DNA of 64,000 bases from Minisyncoccota bacterium (GTDB lineage Bacteria > Patescibacteriota > Minisyncoccia > UBA6257 > JAGOQP01). The translations under genes were made by a program, and so were the position numbers. The notes under the pieces were generated by a model. The model worked only from the letters and a program-made list of their open reading frames with translations, did no database searches and had not been told where the DNA came from. Of this stretch, positions 16,162-63,617 are shown in pieces (positions within the stretch are counted from its first letter, which is position 1; every line of letters begins with the position of its first letter). The stretch covers positions 17,525-81,524 of the forward strand of contig JAGOQP010000003.1 in assembly GCA_017991375.1 (NCBI GenBank). Direction: 5' to 3'.

Positions 16162-17964
16162 CTAATTCTCTGGAGCATTATTGACGATGCGTTCTTTTCG
16201 TACACGATCCAGTTGTGATCGAATTTGTTTTCTCAGGCGGATATTTTTGGGCGTGATTTCCAGATAGTCATCTTTGTTCATAATTTCGAGTCCTCGTTCG
16301 AGCGTGAGCGTAAGCGGGGGAGTAAGTTGGATCGCTTCGTCCGCTCGTGCCGCGCGCATATTGGTAAGATTTTTTCCTTTAGTAGGATTAACAGTTAAAT
16401 CAATTCCTTTTGATACGTTGCCGATAATCATTCCTTCATATACTTCGATTCCTGGCCCAATATAGAGTGTGCCACGCTCTTGAAGATTTGCGAGCGCGTA
16501 CCCAAGGGCTGTTCCGGTCTCCATGGATACCATGGAGCCAACATCTTTTTTGCGAATATCTCCCACATAGGGTCGAAATCCGATAAATCGACTGCATAAA
16601 ATTCCCTCACCGCGCGTGTCTATAACAAATTCGTTGCGGTACCCTAAAAGTCCTCGTGTGGGAACCTCAAATATAAGTCGTAGCCAATTGTCGTGTTGAT
16701 GTGTCGCGGTCATAACGCCACGTCGTTTTCCCATTTTCTCAATAACCACCCCCGAGAGTTCCTGAGGAACATCAACCACTACCTCTTCGTATGGCTCCAT
16801 CTGTTGCCCGTCAATGTGTTTGATGATAACCTCTGGTTGTGATACTTGAAGCTCATATCCCTCGCGACGCATATTTTCAAGCAGTATCGCGATATGCAAC
16901 TCGCCTCGTCCAAAAACAGTGCAATAATCATTTGACGAAAAATCAACACGCAAACCGATATTAACCTCCAATTCCTTCTCTAGTCGTTCGCGAATCTGTC
17001 TGGTGGTGACGAATTTTCCATCGCGTCCAGCAAATGGAGAATCATTTACTAAGAAAGTAAGACAAATGGTTGGCTCATCAACGGTAATCGCGGGGAGCGC
17101 TTTTTGGTCTACTGACGCGCATATCGTTTCTCCGATATCAATATCCGTGATGCCGGCGATCATAACAATATCTCCAGCTTGAACATGAGGAACTTCCTTG
17201 CGCGCGAGTCCGTTAAAAGTAAATAATTTTATGACTTTTGCTGATCGTGTTTCTCCTGATGGTTTTTTAACTACAACCGTTTCTCCGACTGATACAGATC
17301 CTTCGTATACGCGGCAAATTGCCATGCGCCCAAGAAAATTGTCATACGCAAGATTAAATGATTGCGCGCTGAGAGGGGCATCAATATAAGCGGGTGCGGG
17401 AGCGACGACTTCTAATATCGTTTCAAGTAATGGCGTTAAATCGGAAGAGGTGTCGGTAAGATGTTTCTTTGCGATACCATCCCGTCCTATTGCGTAGATA
17501 GTGTGGAAATTAAGTTGTTCGTCGGTCGCGCCAAGATCAAAAAAGAGTTCATATACTTGATCATGAGTTCGTGCCGGGTCTGCCGCGGCCTTGTCTATTT
17601 TATTGATAACCACAATCGGCTTAAGACCAAGCTCGAGTGATTTTTTGAGCACGAAGCGGGTTTGTGGCATCGGACCTTCTTGCGCGTCTACCACTAACAA
17701 TACCGAATCAATAGAGCGCAATACGCGCTCGACTTCTGATCCAAAATCAGCATGACCAGGTGTGTCAACGATGTTAATTTTTGTATCCCTAAAAAAGAGA
17801 GAGGCGTTTTTTGAATAAATCGTAATACCACGCTCTTTTTCGAGCGCGTTACTATCCATGCTCACCCCACTTTCAACCATTCCCGTTTGACGCATAAGCG
17901 CGTCAGTAAGGGCTGTTTTTCCATGGTCAACGTGAGCAATAATTGCGATATTGCGTATTTCCAT
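16162..17964 (-). CDS. typA: translational GTPase TypA/BipA
   Basis: [30 protein letters not shown]; BipA-like domain order. The start is taken at MEIRNIAII. Confidence 0.88.
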
Positions 17965-25943: not shown

Positions 25944-26102
25944 ACACTCAAAATCCCGTCTTTGTGGTGAGGTTAATAAGGCGGGATTTTGTTTTTTTTG
26001 GCATATTTCGTATGGTATGATGTGGACGATAGCGATGTCCGCAAAATTATCTTCTTTTTTGATTTGTTTTTTCTTAGATTAGATTTTTCACTGCTAATAT
26101 TT

Positions 26103-26140
26103 TTGACCCCTTTTTTCACGATCGTGAAAAAAGGGGTCAA
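26103..26140. repeat. 38-bp perfect palindrome, copy 1 of 3
   Basis: TTGACCCCTTTTTTCACGATCGTGAAAAAAGGGGTCAA; identical copies at 28205 and 63580. Confidence 0.95.
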
Positions 26141-26305
26141 ATGGGGTAGTTACATTGTGGTTTATCATGGTTATAATTCACCACAGTCATGGTCTATCAC
26201 AGTGGTGGGTCATCAGAAAGCGAGTAATTAAATAAAGAGGGTGGCTAAGAAAGCGTCGTTGTTATTTTTATTTAATGAGCTACGCGCGTTTTTTGTGTTA
26301 ACTAT

Positions 26306-28150: not shown

Positions 28151-28204
28151 TACATGATGCGAATATACTAATAGCGCGAATCCGCCACTACCTATTATAG
28201 TAGA

Positions 28205-28242
28205 TTGACCCCTTTTTTCACGATCGTGAAAAAAGGGGTCAA
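28205..28242. repeat. 38-bp perfect palindrome, copy 2 of 3
   Basis: Identical to 26103-26140. Confidence 0.95.
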
Positions 28243-28267
28243 TCCATGGCGAACGAATGACTACGAA

Positions 28268-38030: not shown

Positions 38031-40586
38031 TTACATGAATGTATTCACGGAGACATAGTCTTTCACATATTCGGGAATAACTTCGCGGAAGCCGTTCAGT
38101 TCTTTGTAGTCCGCCATTGAAACTTTCGGATTTGTTGCGAATCGACCATATTCCTTTGACTCCACAATTTCCCGAATCTCGTTGTCGGTGATGTATGCCT
38201 TGAGGAAATTCTTGATCGGGTAGTAATACTTGCTGTCCGGCCTGTAGATGGAGATAAACTTTTCAAACTCCTCCTCAAGAAGCTCGTCCTTATTCTTGAA
38301 TTTATCAAGGCGACCGAATACGCGATCTATGACTTCCCGCAAAGAAAGGCGGCGGTCTACTTTTGCAGATTTTCGCAGTTTCTCTAGGTTGTAGAAGTCC
38401 TCGGGCTTGTCGAAGATTTCAGTCTTCACATACTCCTCGATGGCTTGCATGTCGCCCTGCACGTATTTTTCTTTTACGAAACTGTCGGACTTGAGTACAT
38501 CCTCAAATTTCTCAAAAAGTTTGCGATCTACTTTCATTCCCTCAACACCAATCGCTTTTTCGTTGAAAGTCTTTAGCGGGTCAGGGGTTCCGATAACTAC
38601 TTCATCAATATCAATCGGCTCTCCGCCTGTTCCACCAGTGCCTACTTTCGGCACTTTTAGAACTTCGTCGTAATTAAACTTTTCCTCGAAATACTCGCAG
38701 TTGGCGAAAAAGTCGAACAGTTTGAATTTATCTTTTTCTGTCTTTGTTTCCTCCGCCTCTCCGTCCTCACGATGTTCAAATGAGAAATTGAATTTGCGAG
38801 TACCACGCCCTTTGATCTGTATGAAGTCAGTCGGCGAGAAAATCGGGCGCATAAGCCCAAGGTTCAAAATATCTTGGCAGTCATAGCCGGTCGTCATCAT
38901 GCCGACAGTAACGCAAACGCGCGTCTTGCTTGATTTATATCCATCAAGCCACTTCGTGTAGCCGTTCAGGTTGTTGTTTGCAAAATTGATAGTGAATTGC
39001 TGTGCGTCGGGAATATTTGAAGTAACTTGCACGGCAAAATCCGAATTGTATTTGCCCGGCCACATTTTGTCCGCAAGCTGGTTGAGCATTTGCGTGATTT
39101 TTGTCGCGTGTTTTTGGCTTACGCAATAGATAATGCCTTTGCCAATCTCTCCGCTTACTGGATCGGGGAGCGCGTTTTTGAGAAATGTTTCGCAGAAAAT
39201 CGTGTTTGTCTTGTCGGAGAAAAATTTCCTCTCAAAATCCGTTTGGTAAAAAGTCTGTTCCTCTTTGCCTTCCTCGGTGTCAATAATGAGCGAATATCCC
39301 TCGTCAGAGAGAAGTTGCGTAGTGATTTCCGTGCGCGCGTCAGCAACGACCGGATTGACCAAGAAGCCGTCTTTTACGCCATCGAGTAAACTGTAGCGGA
39401 AAGTCGGCTCGCCGTTTTCACAGCCGAAAGTTGTGTAAGTATCAAGGAGTTGGCGCCGCTCCCATGATCGCGGGTCTTTCTCATTCAATTTTGCAGGGTC
39501 TATGCCTTTAAGATAATTTCTAGGAGTAGCGGTGAGTCCGAGCTTGTAGCCGACAAAGTATTCAAAGACCGCACGGCTATTTCCACCGATTGAGCGATGG
39601 GCTTCGTCAGAAATGATGAGGTCAAAATCCGTTGGAGTGAAAAGTTTTTGGTATTTGTTGCCGGATGAAAGACTTTGTATCGTAGAAACGACAATCTCCG
39701 CCTTGCGCCAATCGTCTCGATTTTCTTTATAGATAACGGTCGTGTAATCCTTGGAAAGCCACTTTTTGAAATTTTTCGCCGCCTGATCTTCAAGCTCGAT
39801 GCGGTCTACGAGAAAGAGAATCCGTTTTGCATTTCCGGTCTTGAGAAAGAGCTTGATAACGGCGGCGCAGGTAAGGGTCTTTCCAGTTCCCGTCGCCATC
39901 TCAAAGAGATAGCGATCTTTTCCGTTTTGCGCCCACGCTTGGAGTGCCTCGATAGCTTTTAGCTGATACGGGCGCAAAAATTTCAAGTCGTATTCCTTGA
40001 TCAGTTCTGATTTCTGCTTTTCATCTGTCCAGCGAGGGTCTTTTTGATAGACAGGGTTTTGGGTGAGTGCGATAAAATCGGGCGCGAGTTTTTCTTCGTT
40101 CAGCCTTTTTGAGTCCGGCTTGAAGGATTCAATATGCTTGAGTGATTCCGGCGTAGGGAAAACGGTAATAATTGACGGATTGCCTCGTTCCAAATCCCAA
40201 AAATAATGAATGTTGCCGTTCGAGAGAATAATGAATCGAACATTTTGAGACTGTGCATACCGGCGAGCTTGCTCTTTGCCGTTGAGTGGGTCTTTATCTT
40301 CTGATTTTGCTTCTAGCACGACATACGGAAAACCCTTTTCATCGAGCAAAAGAAAGTCGATAAAACCGTCCTTCGTTTTATCAAAATCGTTTCCAAATTC
40401 ATCAACGGCGGATTTTGTGAGCTTCACATTGTTTTCCAAAACAATATTCGCCACGCCGTTTTCATCGTCAAAAAACCTCCAGCCGGATACTTGAAGCAAG
40501 TTGTTTATTTTTATTCTTGATTTTGCTTCTTTTTGCATATAATTGGCTAAATAATCCTTATTTTGCTTGGGTTCAAACTTGGACAT
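38031..40586 (-). CDS. hsdR: type I restriction enzyme R subunit (HsdR)
   Basis: N-terminal PD-(D/E)xK core DFLLLDEKGFPYVVLEAK; SF2 helicase motifs MATGTGKT and IISDEAHRS; 851 aa. Confidence 0.85.
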   Translation of the reverse strand: MSKFEPKQNKDYLANYMQKEAKSRIKINNLLQVSGWRFFDDENGVANIVLENNVKLTKSAVDEFGNDFDKTKDGFIDFLLLDEKGFPYVVLEAKSEDKDPLNGKEQARRYAQSQNVRFIILSNGNIHYFWDLERGNPSIITVFPTPESLKHIESFKPDSKRLNEEKLAPDFIALTQNPVYQKDPRWTDEKQKSELIKEYDLKFLRPYQLKAIEALQAWAQNGKDRYLFEMATGTGKTLTCAAVIKLFLKTGNAKRILFLVDRIELEDQAAKNFKKWLSKDYTTVIYKENRDDWRKAEIVVSTIQSLSSGNKYQKLFTPTDFDLIISDEAHRSIGGNSRAVFEYFVGYKLGLTATPRNYLKGIDPAKLNEKDPRSWERRQLLDTYTTFGCENGEPTFRYSLLDGVKDGFLVNPVVADARTEITTQLLSDEGYSLIIDTEEGKEEQTFYQTDFERKFFSDKTNTIFCETFLKNALPDPVSGEIGKGIIYCVSQKHATKITQMLNQLADKMWPGKYNSDFAVQVTSNIPDAQQFTINFANNNLNGYTKWLDGYKSSKTRVCVTVGMMTTGYDCQDILNLGLMRPIFSPTDFIQIKGRGTRKFNFSFEHREDGEAEETKTEKDKFKLFDFFANCEYFEEKFNYDEVLKVPKVGTGGTGGEPIDIDEVVIGTPDPLKTFNEKAIGVEGMKVDRKLFEKFEDVLKSDSFVKEKYVQGDMQAIEEYVKTEIFDKPEDFYNLEKLRKSAKVDRRLSLREVIDRVFGRLDKFKNKDELLEEEFEKFISIYRPDSKYYYPIKNFLKAYITDNEIREIVESKEYGRFATNPKVSMADYKELNGFREVIPEYVKDYVSVNTFM

Positions 40587-40589
40587 CTG

Positions 40590-40607
40590 GCGGAGAGGGA
40601 GGGATTC
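40590..40607. repeat. 18-nt direct duplicate of the tRNA-Ser 3' end
   Basis: GCGGAGAGGGAGGGATTC is identical to 40782-40799, the 3' terminal portion of the tRNA. It lies 4 nt from the hsdR start. Confidence 0.85.
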
Positions 40608-40782
40608 TCCTTCGACTCTAGTATACGCCGTCGCGTATACTAGGTCTAGGCACCAACTCGCTGTATAATCTGCTGATTACACATGCTCCGTTGTTCGAAA
40701 TCCCCACAAGAGCCAAGCAGTTGGCTCTTTCCCTCTTCGTGCATAAAATCATCTCGCTTAATAACGAGAAATTTTATATGCG

Positions 40783-40869
40783 CGGAGAGGGAGGGATTCG
40801 AACCCTCGGACCGGTTTCCCGGTCAACATCTTAGCAGGATGCTGCTATCGACCGCTCAGCCACCTCTCC
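40783..40869 (-). tRNA. tRNA-Ser (anticodon GCT), class II with long variable arm, no encoded CCA
   Basis: Acceptor GGAGAGG/CCTCTCC, anticodon loop CTGCTAA, variable arm TGACCGGGAAACCGGTC, T-loop TTCGAAT. Confidence 0.8.
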
Positions 40870-46971: not shown

Positions 46972-47135
46972 ATCGCCAGTATCATCCTTGGCGCCCGTTC
47001 CCACGAGCGCCTTTTGTTTTTACTCTTGATTATCCGCCCTTTCTCCGCTACAGTTTGGAATGGTTATTATTGGTTTTTCACTTGGTGTTTTAGATTTTTT
47101 CTATCAGCTATAAGCCATAAGCTCTTAGCCAAATC

Positions 47136-47463
47136 GGCCTCATCGTCTAACGGTTAGGACAGTGCCCTTTTCCACCATCGGTGGATCGCCCATAGGGGGA
47201 CACGGCATACGCGTCAATATGTTCTATGTATATGTGTTAAAATCACTTGGACATAGCCGACATTATATCGGCATAACTAATAACGGAAAGAAAAGATTGC
47301 AAAAACATAACAGCGGATCGGTTCGTTCCACAAAAGCATATAGACCATGGGCTATAGCTTGGATAGAAGAATACAATAACAAAACAGATGCTCGCAGGAG
47401 AGAATTACTACTGAAAAATAATTACACGTTAAGAAAAGAGTTATTCGAAAAAATAGAAAAATC
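47136..47463 (+). repeat. tandem unit 1: tRNA-Glu 5'-half copy (35 nt) plus GIY-YIG ORF
   Basis: 328-bp unit, near-identical to 47464-47791 (1-2 mismatches). Confidence 0.9.
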
Positions 47464-47485
47464 GACCTCATCGTCTAACGGTTAG
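47219..47485 (+). CDS. GIY-YIG nuclease family small protein (copy 1)
   Basis: MFYVYVLKSLGHSRHYIGITNNGKKRLQKHN...; about 89 aa. The last roughly 11 codons and the stop are encoded by the following tRNA-Glu 5'-half copy. Confidence 0.7.
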   Translation: MFYVYVLKSLGHSRHYIGITNNGKKRLQKHNSGSVRSTKAYRPWAIAWIEEYNNKTDARRRELLLKNNYTLRKELFEKIEKSTSSSNG

Positions 47486-47791
47486 GACAGTGCCCTTTTC
47501 CACCATCGGTGGATCGCCCATAGGGGGACACGGCATACGCGTCAATATGTTCTATGTATATGTGTTAAAATCACTTGGACATAGCCGACATTATATCGGC
47601 ATAACTAATAACGGAAAGAAAAGATTGCAAAAACATAACAGCGGATCGGTTCGTTCCACAAAAGCATATAGACCATGGGCTATAGCTTGGATAGAAGAAT
47701 ACAATAACAAAACAGATGCTCGCAGGAGAGAATTACTACTGAAAAATAATTACACGTTAAGAAAAGAGTTATTCGAAAAAATAGAAAAATC
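47464..47791 (+). repeat. tandem unit 2: tRNA-Glu 5'-half copy plus GIY-YIG ORF
   Basis: See unit 1. Confidence 0.9.
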
Positions 47792-47813
47792 GGCCTCATC
47801 GTCTAACGGTTAG
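47547..47813 (+). CDS. GIY-YIG nuclease family small protein (copy 2)
   Basis: Identical to copy 1 except one residue near the C-terminus. Its C-terminus is encoded by the 5' half of the intact tRNA-Glu gene. Confidence 0.7.
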   Translation: MFYVYVLKSLGHSRHYIGITNNGKKRLQKHNSGSVRSTKAYRPWAIAWIEEYNNKTDARRRELLLKNNYTLRKELFEKIEKSASSSNG

Positions 47814-47866
47814 GACAGTGCCCTTTCACGGCATAAATTCGGGTTCGATTCCCGATGAGGTCACCA
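47792..47866 (+). tRNA. tRNA-Glu (anticodon TTC) with encoded CCA
   Basis: Acceptor GGCCTCA/TGAGGTC, D-arm GTCT..GGAC, anticodon loop CTTTCAC, T-loop TTCGATT, then ACCA. Confidence 0.8.
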
Positions 47867-47867
47867 A

Positions 47868-47900
47868 AATAAATAGCACCGAAGGTGTTATTTATTTTGG
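47868..47900 (+). terminator. rho-independent terminator after tRNA-Glu
   Basis: AAATAAATAGCACC-GAA-GGTGTTATTTATTTT. Confidence 0.6.
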
Positions 47901-48237
47901 TGATACTAAGCGAAATCGAACTATAAGCCCCCGTGGCGCCTGCCTGCTGTAGGCAGGGAAGATATGGAAGAATATTTGACATAGAAAAGCAACCAGGTTT
48001 ATAATATTAATCATGTTCAAGGCAATATTGAGCATCTAAGGCCGGAGTCGGGGATCCTCAAGATTATAAGAGTAAATTTCTGAGATCTGTGGTCACTCAA
48101 AAGATGCTTATAAATCACAGTTCTAAAAATAGTTGCCGGAGTCGGAACCCCTCATAAAAAACATCTTGATAATTAAGGTGTTTTTTGTTTTTGATGTGGA
48201 TAATGGAGGAATATTATTGTACACTGAACATATTCTC

Positions 48238-48891
48238 ATGTGGTATTTATACTTGGATGAAAGCGGTGATTTAGGTTTTGATTTTGTTAATAAAAAACCA
48301 ACAAAATTCTTCACCGTAACTATTCTAGCTGTTAGCTCTCGAGATGCTAACAGAAAGTTATTTAATGCTGCGAAAAAAACATTAAATCAAAAACTCAATA
48401 ACAAAAAACATAGGAAAAGAATCATTTCTGAGCTTAAAGGAACTGGAACCACAATAATAATCAAAAAATATTTTTTTGAAAAAGTTAAGAACACAAAATT
48501 TGGCCTCTATTCTATCACTTTGAACAAAAAACGAGTGTATGCAACTCTGGCAGAAAATAAATCAAGAGTTTATAACTATATTTCAAGACAGGTTTTAGAC
48601 CGCATACCTTTTGAAAAATATGACTCTGATAGAGTAGAGCTAATCATAGATAAGTCTATGGCAAAACCAGAAATCTCAGAGTTTAATTCTTATATTAGGC
48701 GCCAACTAGAAGGAAGAATCTCCCCAAACACGCCGTTGGATATATATCACCGCTTGTCTCATGAAAATTTTGGATTGCAAATTGTCGATTTGTTTTGCTG
48801 GGGCATTTTTGAAAAGTACGAAAAACCAAAAAACGATGATTGGTTTAACATTTTTAAAGAAAAAGTACTGCTTGACGAGCAGTACCTATAA
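48238..48891 (+). CDS. DUF3800-family protein
   Basis: N-terminal MWYLYLDESGDLGFDF matches the DUF3800 YxDESG signature. The locus is very AT-rich and Lys/Asn-rich and looks foreign. Confidence 0.6.
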   Translation: MWYLYLDESGDLGFDFVNKKPTKFFTVTILAVSSRDANRKLFNAAKKTLNQKLNNKKHRKRIISELKGTGTTIIIKKYFFEKVKNTKFGLYSITLNKKRVYATLAENKSRVYNYISRQVLDRIPFEKYDSDRVELIIDKSMAKPEISEFNSYIRRQLEGRISPNTPLDIYHRLSHENFGLQIVDLFCWGIFEKYEKPKNDDWFNIFKEKVLLDEQYL

Positions 48892-49182
48892 AGACCCCTT
48901 GCGGGGGAGCTGCCTTATAGATTTGTAGTGTCCACACTATAGCCAACCGATGGATGGGAACATGTGGAACAATCTATAAAGGGCTAACGCTCAAATATAG
49001 ATTAGCATAAATTCTATAAAAAACAACAAATTTTGTGGATAAGTTAAAAACGAATCCTAATATGAGCTAGGTTTTATTAGGTTTTTATAAATAGGATAGT
49101 ATTTACAGATATATAGATAATTATTGACTCCACTCTCAAAAAGAGGCACTATTTTAATATACGGGCCAAAAGCCCTATTTCT

Positions 49183-63471: not shown

Positions 63472-63478
63472 ATTTAAA

Positions 63479-63516
63479 CCCCCTCGTGAAAAAAGTTCAC
63501 GAGGGGGTTTTTGTTT
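63479..63516 (+). terminator. rho-independent terminator after rpsR
   Basis: CCCCCTCGTGAA-AAAAG-TTCACGAGGGGG followed by TTTTTGTTT. Confidence 0.85.
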
Positions 63517-63579
63517 GATAGGTAAGTATGTACAAAAAGGTTGACGAAGGATAAAAAAACGGCGGGATTTTTGACCCCT

Positions 63580-63617
63580 TTTTTCACGATCGTGAAAAAA
63601 GGGGTCAAAGGGGAGCT
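63580..63617. repeat. 38-bp perfect palindrome, copy 3 of 3
   Basis: Identical to 26103-26140. Confidence 0.95.

Follow-up and report, generated by a model that had tools for sequence, protein, structure and literature searches.

The tRNA-Glu(UUC) gene on contig JAGOQP010000003.1 of a Minisyncoccota bacterium is preceded by two nearly identical 328-bp units, each made up of a partial copy of the same tRNA gene, interrupted by a double hairpin, and a small gene of the GIY-YIG nuclease family. The stretch analysed, referred to here as the window, is 64,000 nucleotides (nt) long (contig positions 17,525 to 81,524), and all coordinates are those of the window unless a locus is named. We favour, with modest confidence, the reading that the units represent a long-lived selfish cassette of the homing type that occupies the tRNA-Glu transcription unit and was recently doubled by recombination between tRNA repeats. 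Sequence comparison bears out the anatomy of the cassette, its recurrence at many tRNAs and in many phyla, the purifying selection on its nuclease, the palindromic nature of its hairpins and its variable copy number. The features of the array are listed below; the incomplete tRNA copies are called dead copies and ORF denotes an open reading frame.

47131-47826, the whole tandem repeat: period 328, 2.1 copies, 99% matches (Tandem Repeats Finder)
47136..47170, plus strand, dead copy 1: tRNA-Glu nt 1-35, the same as in the intact gene (0 mismatches)
47171..47200, no strand, double hairpin 1 (TCCACC-ATC-GGTGGA + TCGCCC-ATA-GGGGGA) between anticodon nt 35 and 36, from sequence and family covariation
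47201..47209, plus strand, dead copy 1 resumed: tRNA-Glu nt 36-44 (CACGGCATA), followed by a 9-nt leader and ATG
47219..47485, plus strand, GIY-YIG ORF 1: 88 amino acids, tail ..KSTSSSNG, last 22 nt including TAG within tRNA copy 2
47464..47498, plus strand, dead copy 2: tRNA-Glu nt 1-35 with G2 changed to A (47465), the sole difference between the units
47499..47528, no strand, double hairpin 2: same sequence as hairpin 1
47529..47537, plus strand, dead copy 2 resumed: tRNA-Glu nt 36-44
47547..47813, plus strand, GIY-YIG ORF 2: 88 amino acids, tail ..KSASSSNG, last 22 nt within the intact tRNA
47792..47866, plus strand, intact tRNA-Glu(UUC), CCA encoded (ARAGORN; Rfam tRNA, 62.3 bits)
47862..47902, plus strand, 19-bp hairpin beginning in the CACCA end of the tRNA (z-score -10.1), a probable terminator for the whole unit

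A previous reading of these letters without database searches (the sequence-only reading) had described two 328-bp near-identical units followed by a complete tRNA-Glu, and this is confirmed by Tandem Repeats Finder, ARAGORN and Rfam; direct comparison of the units finds 1 differing base in 328, G at 47137 and A at 47465. Nucleotides 1-35 of the intact tRNA-Glu recur at 47136-47170 (0 mismatches) and at 47464-47498 (1 mismatch), and 100 shuffles gave 0 such recurrences. The units had been said to begin with this 35-nt segment and to part from the tRNA within the anticodon loop. They do begin so, with 0-1 mismatches, although their tRNA part extends to nt 44; and the break does fall at nt 35/36, but it is no simple departure, for a 30-nt insert (TCCACCATCGGTGGA TCGCCCATAGGGGGA in each unit) is followed by resumption of nt 36-44. 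Because tRNA identity returns for 9 nt after the insert, each unit carries a dead tRNA copy of nt 1-44 that is split by the hairpin between the second and third bases of the anticodon. As G2-U71 is common among these tRNA-Glu genes, a simple mutation is the best account of the A at 47465. Acceptor-stem pairing of dead and live copies was also compared for signs of a chimeric intact tRNA, a comparison that is unreliable as the tRNA end coordinates vary.

Both ORFs terminate at the TAG of GGTTAGGAC, in the D-arm of the next tRNA copy, so that the stop codon is indeed supplied by tRNA sequence as the sequence-only reading had it, with an overlap of 22 nt (about 7 codons plus the stop) rather than of about 11 codons. 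The product of ORF 2 is database protein P0001, and in several database homologues the C-terminal tails (..ALSSNG, ..GPIV) are the translated 5' ends of tRNA-Glu; the nuclease genes of many relatives stop before the tRNA. The unit contains no second family-matched ORF beside the GIY-YIG gene and encodes neither an integrase nor a recombinase. No copy of the 3' part of the tRNA was found downstream in the window, the direct repeat being nt 1-35 plus 36-44.

The 88-residue protein matches the Pfam GIY-YIG family (PF01541) over residues 1-70 (E-value 2.3e-15; 57.1 bits against a cut-off of 22.6), and Pfam and NCBIfam/PADLOC-type scans found no second domain beyond these residues. PADLOC returned two marginal matches (E about 0.006-0.01) and an NCBIfam search of the protein none. 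Proteins at 40-60% identity to it are found in Patescibacteria and other uncultured bacteria, and a profile of these relatives matches the UPF0213 structures BH0048 (1zg2; 7e-15) and EF2693 (1ywl; 4e-13) as well as SLX1 chains (1e-6 to 4e-5); no homing-enzyme or UvrC chain scored below 1e-3 in the profile search. The protein is accordingly best classed, on these matches, as a minimal GIY-YIG nuclease of the Slx1/UPF0213 lineage, corresponding to the Slx1-like minimal branch of the superfamily set out by Dunin-Horkawicz et al. (PMC1564403). Residues Y5, Y16, G18, R26, H30, N31, E50, R61, E62 and K66 are at least 96% conserved among 56 relatives and all of them occur in the window protein, the catalytic Tyr, Tyr-x-Gly, Arg and Glu positions being kept. 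Pairs of relatives at 72-78% DNA identity have a non-synonymous divergence (dN) of 0.08-0.17, with synonymous divergence (dS) saturated. Together with the retained catalytic residues, this low dN and saturated dS argue that the gene has been kept functional over long periods.

The 30-bp insert reads as a dyad-symmetric DNA element composed of two 15-bp palindromes, the second hairpin being the reverse complement of the first. Among 12 examples the stem cells are paired at 99.3%, with changes on both sides in 8 of the 12 pairs and one-sided changes in none, and across 52 distinct tRNA-Glu examples 620 of the 624 stem pairs are Watson-Crick. The loop of the first hairpin is purine-rich and that of the second pyrimidine-rich. 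With the second hairpin taken as the reverse complement, loop identity amounts to 1.90 of 3, versus 0.17 when it is read directly. Stems resemble each other more within a locus than between loci. The hairpin of the window is slightly decayed, having one G-G mismatch. A search for it as a widely scattered repeat found nothing in the 64-kb window beyond its two copies and two other hairpins of loose similarity.

G-U pairs are nearly absent, which points to selection or generation of the stems as DNA and not as RNA. This bears on the suggestion that a tRNA precursor carries the hairpin in the manner of an intron, with the GIY-YIG protein processing RNA. We find this scarcely credible, even though the insertions are exact and fall in loops of the tRNA, where archaeal tRNA introns are also located, and a fusion of a related GIY-YIG domain with a tRNA methyltransferase is on record (PMC1564403). 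Besides the essentially G-U-free stems and the reverse-complement relation of the hairpins, the dead copy lacks the 3' half of the tRNA, almost all complete loci have an intact tRNA beside it, the RNA stability of the leader is unremarkable (z-score -0.4), and Rfam finds no family at E <= 1 in 47136-47791. The ending of the dead copy at nt 44, the want of an Rfam intron model and the DNA-type symmetry of the stems likewise distinguish the arrangement from group I and archaeal tRNA introns.

At least 541 relatives emerged when one genome per species was scanned, and the best 80 of them, from bacterial genomes, were examined. A same-strand tRNA lies within 260 nt after the stop codon in 43 of these 80, and in 32 of the 43 the tRNA starts between 47 nt before and 26 nt after the stop. 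The associated tRNAs are those for Glu, Ser, Cys, Trp, Tyr, Val, Lys, His, Ile, Leu and others, and the distribution is patchy over many tRNA species and phyla, the hosts including Patescibacteria, Bacteroidota and Ignavibacteriota. About nine loci show a mirror form in which the tRNA directly precedes the ATG and a 3' fragment follows the stop. Dead copies were analysed in 47 loci, namely 46 tRNA-linked loci (three admitted by a looser window) and the window itself. An upstream dead copy of the same tRNA is present in 38 of the 47, starting at or near nt 1 and ending at nt 22-89, and in most of the 38 the ATG follows it by 0-23 nt. GC-rich hairpins interrupt the dead copies, mostly without the loss of any tRNA base, and are found mainly in or near the D-loop, at the junction around nt 26, in the anticodon loop and in the T-loop; in some loci the whole anticodon arm is replaced by a hairpin. 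A small GIY-YIG element tied to a tRNA of which an intact copy is kept, as the sequence-only reading inferred, is thus supported by a large family of tRNA-linked cassettes, and its view of the anticodon region as special holds for the tRNA-Glu lineage, where all dead copies long enough to include the anticodon have a hairpin insert at nt 35/36, a double hairpin in all but one locus.

In 25 of 48 cases a nuclease and its nearest neighbour by protein sequence sit at the same tRNA species, where 1000 permutations gave 7.3 on average and 17 at most; the nuclease clades track tRNA identity. Several loci (L004, L005, L013, L032, L040, L063 and L064) have an extra 5'-truncated copy located 3' of the intact tRNA, which bears the same hairpin and retains all of the 3' half. 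Such full forms would yield the simpler form of the window if their repeated 3' halves recombined. We note also that some loci are nested. At L023 (2240-2413) an intact tRNA-Val lies within the D-loop of a hairpin-bearing dead tRNA-Val, and at L040 (2440-2870) the acceptor stem of a split dead tRNA-Ile has compensating bases of its own (GGGTCGG/CCGACCC), different from those of the intact copy, as if an incoming gene had replaced an older resident. An identical 24-nt hairpin, CCCCGTCGCTCGCGAGCGACGGGG, splits the anticodon loop of tRNA-Trp in the dead copies of L017 and L032, whose hosts belong to two candidate phyla, Saccharibacteria and Kerfeldbacteria.

Copy number was followed with a pattern consisting of the tRNA-Glu D-arm, the anticodon stem and the first hairpin, which matched 113 stretches in metagenomes; 80 of these were listed, of which 77 are true loci and 3 are chance matches in coding sequence. 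The true loci include the following forms.

Dead copy, nuclease gene, tRNA (the canonical form): 43 of 77 loci
Dead copy then tRNA, with the nuclease gene absent: 10 of 77 loci
Two hairpin-bearing dead copies 320-434 nt apart: 12 of 77 loci

L157 has exactly the architecture of the window, with 330-nt units that are 99.7% identical to each other. The two-unit layout of the window occurs in a 13.8-kb contig from another project and in part in several more. L155, with one unit, and L157, with two, come from sister samples and share the same left flank and right flanks that are 99% identical. In L003, L103 and L117 the order is psi-nuclease-psi-tRNA (psi being a dead copy), without a second nuclease gene. 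Nucleotides 1-35 of the dead copy equal those of the neighbouring tRNA in 31 of 57 comparisons; in L157 and L152 the dead copy represents a different tRNA-Glu allele, with other D-loop or acceptor bases, and hence is not always copied from the adjacent gene.

The species of the window itself shows variation at this locus. A gene of 114 amino acids just upstream of the array is 100% identical in five other sequencing runs. Two of the contigs have the window allele and break off in the first unit, and three, each from a different run, have another allele (L083 3444-3600, also L085 and L086). This other allele has an unrelated 143 nt in place of window 47070-47150, a decayed dead copy with an extra hairpin pair, TTCCGCCTGGGGCGGA CCAATATGACATTGG, in the D-loop region, and a single nuclease unit before the tRNA. 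The comparison of tRNA-Glu loci in relatives that had been proposed recovers one-unit, two-unit and nuclease-free forms and no clean empty site. The doubling in the window is to be seen as one state of an unstable locus and, as its units share 327 of 328 bases, as a recent one.

The sequence-only reading had preferred two serial insertions. On such a view a 328-bp unit, for example as a circle or through break repair, would have entered tRNA-Glu at nt 35/36 with restoration of the target, which a second unit then entered in turn. The junctions run as this would have them (tRNA 1-35, unit, tRNA 1-35, unit, intact tRNA), the restored tRNA has the same sequence as the presumed target, and two-unit arrays are frequent, at 12 of 77 loci. 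However, the units agree at 327 of 328 positions, hairpin and nt 36-44 included, and unequal exchange gives the same product; exactly one unit separates L155 from L157, whose context is the same, the psi-nuclease-psi-tRNA arrays are better fitted by recombination and deletion, and no recombinase is encoded in the unit. Strand joining is not known for GIY-YIG domains. Given the near-identity of the units and the varying copy number, serial insertion is not favoured over tandem duplication, and we regard it as rather doubtful.

That the second copy is a product of assembly, a strain variant (G or A at tRNA nt 2) having sent the assembler twice round the repeat, is highly unlikely in our estimation. 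The source is a metagenome-assembled genome built from short reads, the window corresponding to one of Candidatus Pacebacteria (GCA_020047475.1), one base alone separates the units, and two independent assemblies of the window allele, L084 and L087, end inside the first unit at 47182 and 47160 respectively. Yet the path from the end of the nuclease gene through the A-variant tRNA copy into the hairpin requires, to judge from the letters, a 33-nt span that exists only where units are adjacent, and the layout recurs in the other contigs mentioned above. The count of two copies rests on the deposited assembly, its A-variant junction and the same layout in unrelated contigs.

If the cassette is a selfish element of the homing type, its mode of life could be as follows. 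The 328-bp cassette, present twice, would lie in the tRNA-Glu(UUC) gene, after the promoter and before the body, and be transcribed from the tRNA promoter together with the tRNA; the lack of a terminator before the tRNA and the strong 19-bp hairpin after it fit such reading from the tRNA promoter. Since the stop codons lie inside the tRNA, RNase P processing would remove the stop from the message, and it might be speculated that this could hold nuclease levels low. The nuclease would break tRNA-Glu DNA at or near the anticodon arm, a target taken from the hairpin position only. Slx1 has a preference for branched or hairpin DNA, and in free-standing homing endonucleases of the Seg/Mob type the catalytic domain is coupled to a second one, which binds DNA and recognizes a long target. 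Given the absence of a DNA-binding domain and the Slx1 lineage, recognition by the window protein is more likely to be through DNA shape (the arms of the tRNA gene and the dyad-symmetric hairpin) than through a long sequence, and by analogy a preference like that of Slx1 would suit both the tRNA-gene arms and the double hairpin. Repair would copy the cassette by way of the tRNA sequence on either side of the nuclease gene, which would serve as built-in homology arms; with tRNA sequence on both sides, repair could enter the same tRNA gene in any genome, and one intact tRNA would always be restored. The hairpin at nt 35/36 would mark and destroy the target in the dead copy, as an intron does at a classical homing site. 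Finally, the 35-40-nt direct tRNA repeats, which exist because of the cassette, would destabilize the locus, and unequal recombination, possibly stimulated by the nuclease, would lead to one-unit, two-unit or nuclease-free forms.

Several observations weigh against this reading. The role given to the hairpin is a guess, similar hairpins being found at other positions in other tRNA lineages and in downstream 3' fragments, and it could equally be a substrate of the nuclease, a small mobile DNA in its own right or a means of reducing the length of homology that the repeats share. The logic of immunity is incomplete, since the tRNA that is restored would still be a target. The protein consists of a catalytic domain only, unlike characterized homing GIY-YIG enzymes, and the strong long-term purifying selection on it exceeds what is expected of a purely parasitic nuclease and could mean that the host makes use of it. 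No vector is evident, the family being nearly absent from collections of phages (0 matches), plasmids (one weak match) and viral contigs (4 weak matches in 2.9 million). Nor is there a direct sign of recent transfer, for a search for near-identical cassettes in unrelated contexts found none, all of them sharing flanks. No clean empty site was recovered, a scan of metagenome contigs with the left flank of the window for an empty or otherwise occupied site giving 0 matches.

A further alternative is a domesticated module that serves the host, for example by guarding or repairing tRNA genes or by regulating the operon, with the doubling a local duplication and no mobility. The low dN with saturated dS and intact catalytic residues, the stem pairing held through many compensatory changes, the occurrence of identical cassettes in the same context only, the absence of the lineage from phages and plasmids and the presence of housekeeping proteins in the Slx1/UPF0213 lineage are all in keeping with it. 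We nevertheless consider it unlikely, since the cassettes are spread patchily over many tRNA species and phyla, some genomes have several of them at different tRNAs, decayed nuclease genes and remnants lacking the nuclease are frequent (L021, L069 and the 10 nuclease-free loci), and dead copies decay (allele 2 of the window species, L104 and L129) or differ in tRNA allele from their neighbour; moreover, a sister clade of nucleases, described below, is bracketed by inverted repeats like a small transposon.

Among known systems, the closest case is SegB of phage T4, a free-standing GIY-YIG homing endonuclease encoded in the tRNA gene cluster. The SegB recognition site contains a conserved T-arm motif of tRNA (PMC2330249); across phages, SegB is found more often than expected near tRNAs, and it causes tRNA+segB units to multiply in tandem, in which there is microhomology shared by the tRNA's 5' end and the nuclease gene's 3' end (PMC13096335). 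As in the cassettes, the nuclease gene of T4 and T6 abuts the 5' end of a tRNA on the same strand, the T4 stop codon being 5 nt before tRNA-Arg. The two differ in that SegB has 221 residues, as opposed to the 88-residue catalytic domain here, with the GIY-YIG motif alone in common (hhalign probability 6.5%), and in that SegB is phage-borne whereas the cassette family is chromosomal and almost absent from viral collections. Neither a dead tRNA copy nor a hairpin insert is reported for SegB in the portions consulted of PMC2330249 and PMC13096335, and its repeats comprise whole tRNAs where the cassettes repeat 5' fragments.

The UPF0213 and Slx1 proteins belong to the same sequence family and share the minimal domain without a DNA-binding module, although no tRNA linkage or mobility is described for the lineage in the available part of Dunin-Horkawicz et al. 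(2006; PMC1564403), and the RING domain and Slx4 partner of Slx1 are not present here. Small GIY-YIG ORFs also occur in non-intron inserts of rRNA genes of the candidate phyla radiation (CPR), most of the inserts lying at the top or base of stem-loops (PMC11270868). These share with the cassettes the bacterial group and the presence of small GIY-YIG ORFs in structured-RNA genes, and the survey mentions neither tRNA nor hairpins (PMC11270868). There the rRNA gene itself is interrupted, whereas here it is a partial duplicate that is interrupted and the functional tRNA is whole. An intact tRNA with a partial direct repeat left behind is likewise seen with integrative elements that enter tRNA genes and restore them. 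Such elements encode an integrase, and the part of the tRNA that they duplicate is the 3' one; the cassette differs in being 328 bp long, in having no recombinase and in duplicating the 5' part.

The hairpins have counterparts in mitochondria. The double-hairpin elements of Allomyces are GC-rich stem-loop insertions in mitochondrial DNA, and similar elements (the GC clusters of yeast, and those of sponges) consist of 1-2 short GC-rich stem-loops inserted precisely at non-essential places, also in structured-RNA genes, with no identified enzyme (PMC2800124). These are organellar, dispersed and present in many copies, while the hairpins here are confined to dead copies (2 in 64 kb) and linked to a nuclease. 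Mobile endonuclease ORFs of fungal mitochondria travel with a duplicate piece of the host gene, so that the function of the gene survives. They differ from the cassettes in having protein-coding hosts, usually with a 3' duplication and an in-frame fusion, and in the nuclease lineages involved; related cases have been described (PMC7315562).

We tentatively raise the possibility that the cassettes form a widespread class, as yet undescribed, of minimal 0.3-kb Slx1-like GIY-YIG elements that colonize tRNA genes by cutting at cloverleaf loops as directed by shape, carry homology arms made of their own target and have 15-30-bp hairpins as substrate or mobile by-product; these hairpins would be a bacterial counterpart of the mitochondrial GC-cluster and double-hairpin elements, with a candidate for the mobilizing enzyme. 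No account of tRNA-linked Slx1-like cassettes with hairpins was found in the full-text literature searched, which leaves out most subscription journals, so that this absence is not proof. If the proposal is correct, the tRNA genes of many uncultured bacteria would host a compact selfish system not described in that literature, in which a GIY-YIG nuclease of the smallest kind goes together with an inbuilt copy of its target and a precise palindromic insert, in parallel to the phage SegB. It would connect mobile hairpin DNA, in a way open to testing, with a structure-specific nuclease, a link long suspected and unproven in mitochondria, and would offer a simple explanation for the tRNA fragments, tandem repeats and contig breaks met beside tRNA genes in metagenome assemblies.

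The sister clade of nucleases has no same-strand tRNA, and in 17 of 79 loci its gene is bracketed by inverted repeats of 13-18 nt, against 2% in mismatched controls; loci with such repeats, here of 10-18 nt (for example CCCCCACACCTTTTAT ... ATAAAAGGTGTGGGGG), include L019, L022, L033, L037, L042, L045, L047, L048, L050, L055, L059, L061, L065, L066, L072 and L075. A nuclease-free copy of the inverted repeats lies nearby at L075, and at L037, L050 and L059 the nuclease gene lies directly against a tRNA of the opposite strand, at its 3' end, and 8-9 nt of that end are repeated on the far side. DNA hairpins whose loops hold the gene may thus be the setting of the entire nuclease family. For the hairpins of the tRNA-linked cassettes, an origin as the joined ends of an inverted-repeat transposon was considered and found no support, as inverted repeats of at least 9 nt were found around the ORF in none of the tRNA-linked loci except two borderline cases, L020 and L035, the repeat of L035 being itself a palindrome.

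Further hairpins and tRNA fragments occur in the window. The hairpin CCTGCCTGC-TGT-AGGCAGG (47939-47957), 73 nt past tRNA-Glu, belongs to the same word family as the dead-copy hairpins of L010, L018, L060 and L020, and no tRNA fragment is detectable beside it. A perfect palindrome of 40 nt, TTTGACCCCTTTTTTCACGATCGTGAAAAAAGGGGTCAAA, occurs three times (26102-26141, 28203-28244 and 63570-63609), with a related one at 63476-63510. Within 40590-40869 (minus strand), the last 18 nt of tRNA-Ser(GCT) are repeated 174 nt downstream (40590-40607), next to a palindrome (40618-40643) and the start of an ORF of 851 amino acids (38031-40586) that by eye is helicase- or restriction-like; the repeat looks like the scar of an element once present at that tRNA. 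The DUF3800 islet that the sequence-only reading placed downstream of tRNA-Glu is real according to Pfam and Rfam. This AT-rich segment (GC 0.34), directly 3' of the tRNA at 47976-48997, contains a perfect TTGACA-18-TATAAT promoter (47976-48005), the DUF3800 ORF (about 48238-48891; Pfam E-value 9e-14) and, on the minus strand, a DUF3800-V RNA motif (48902-48997; 45.1 bits against a gathering score of 37.4), and a DUF3800-II RNA lies 2 kb from another GIY-YIG locus, L070.

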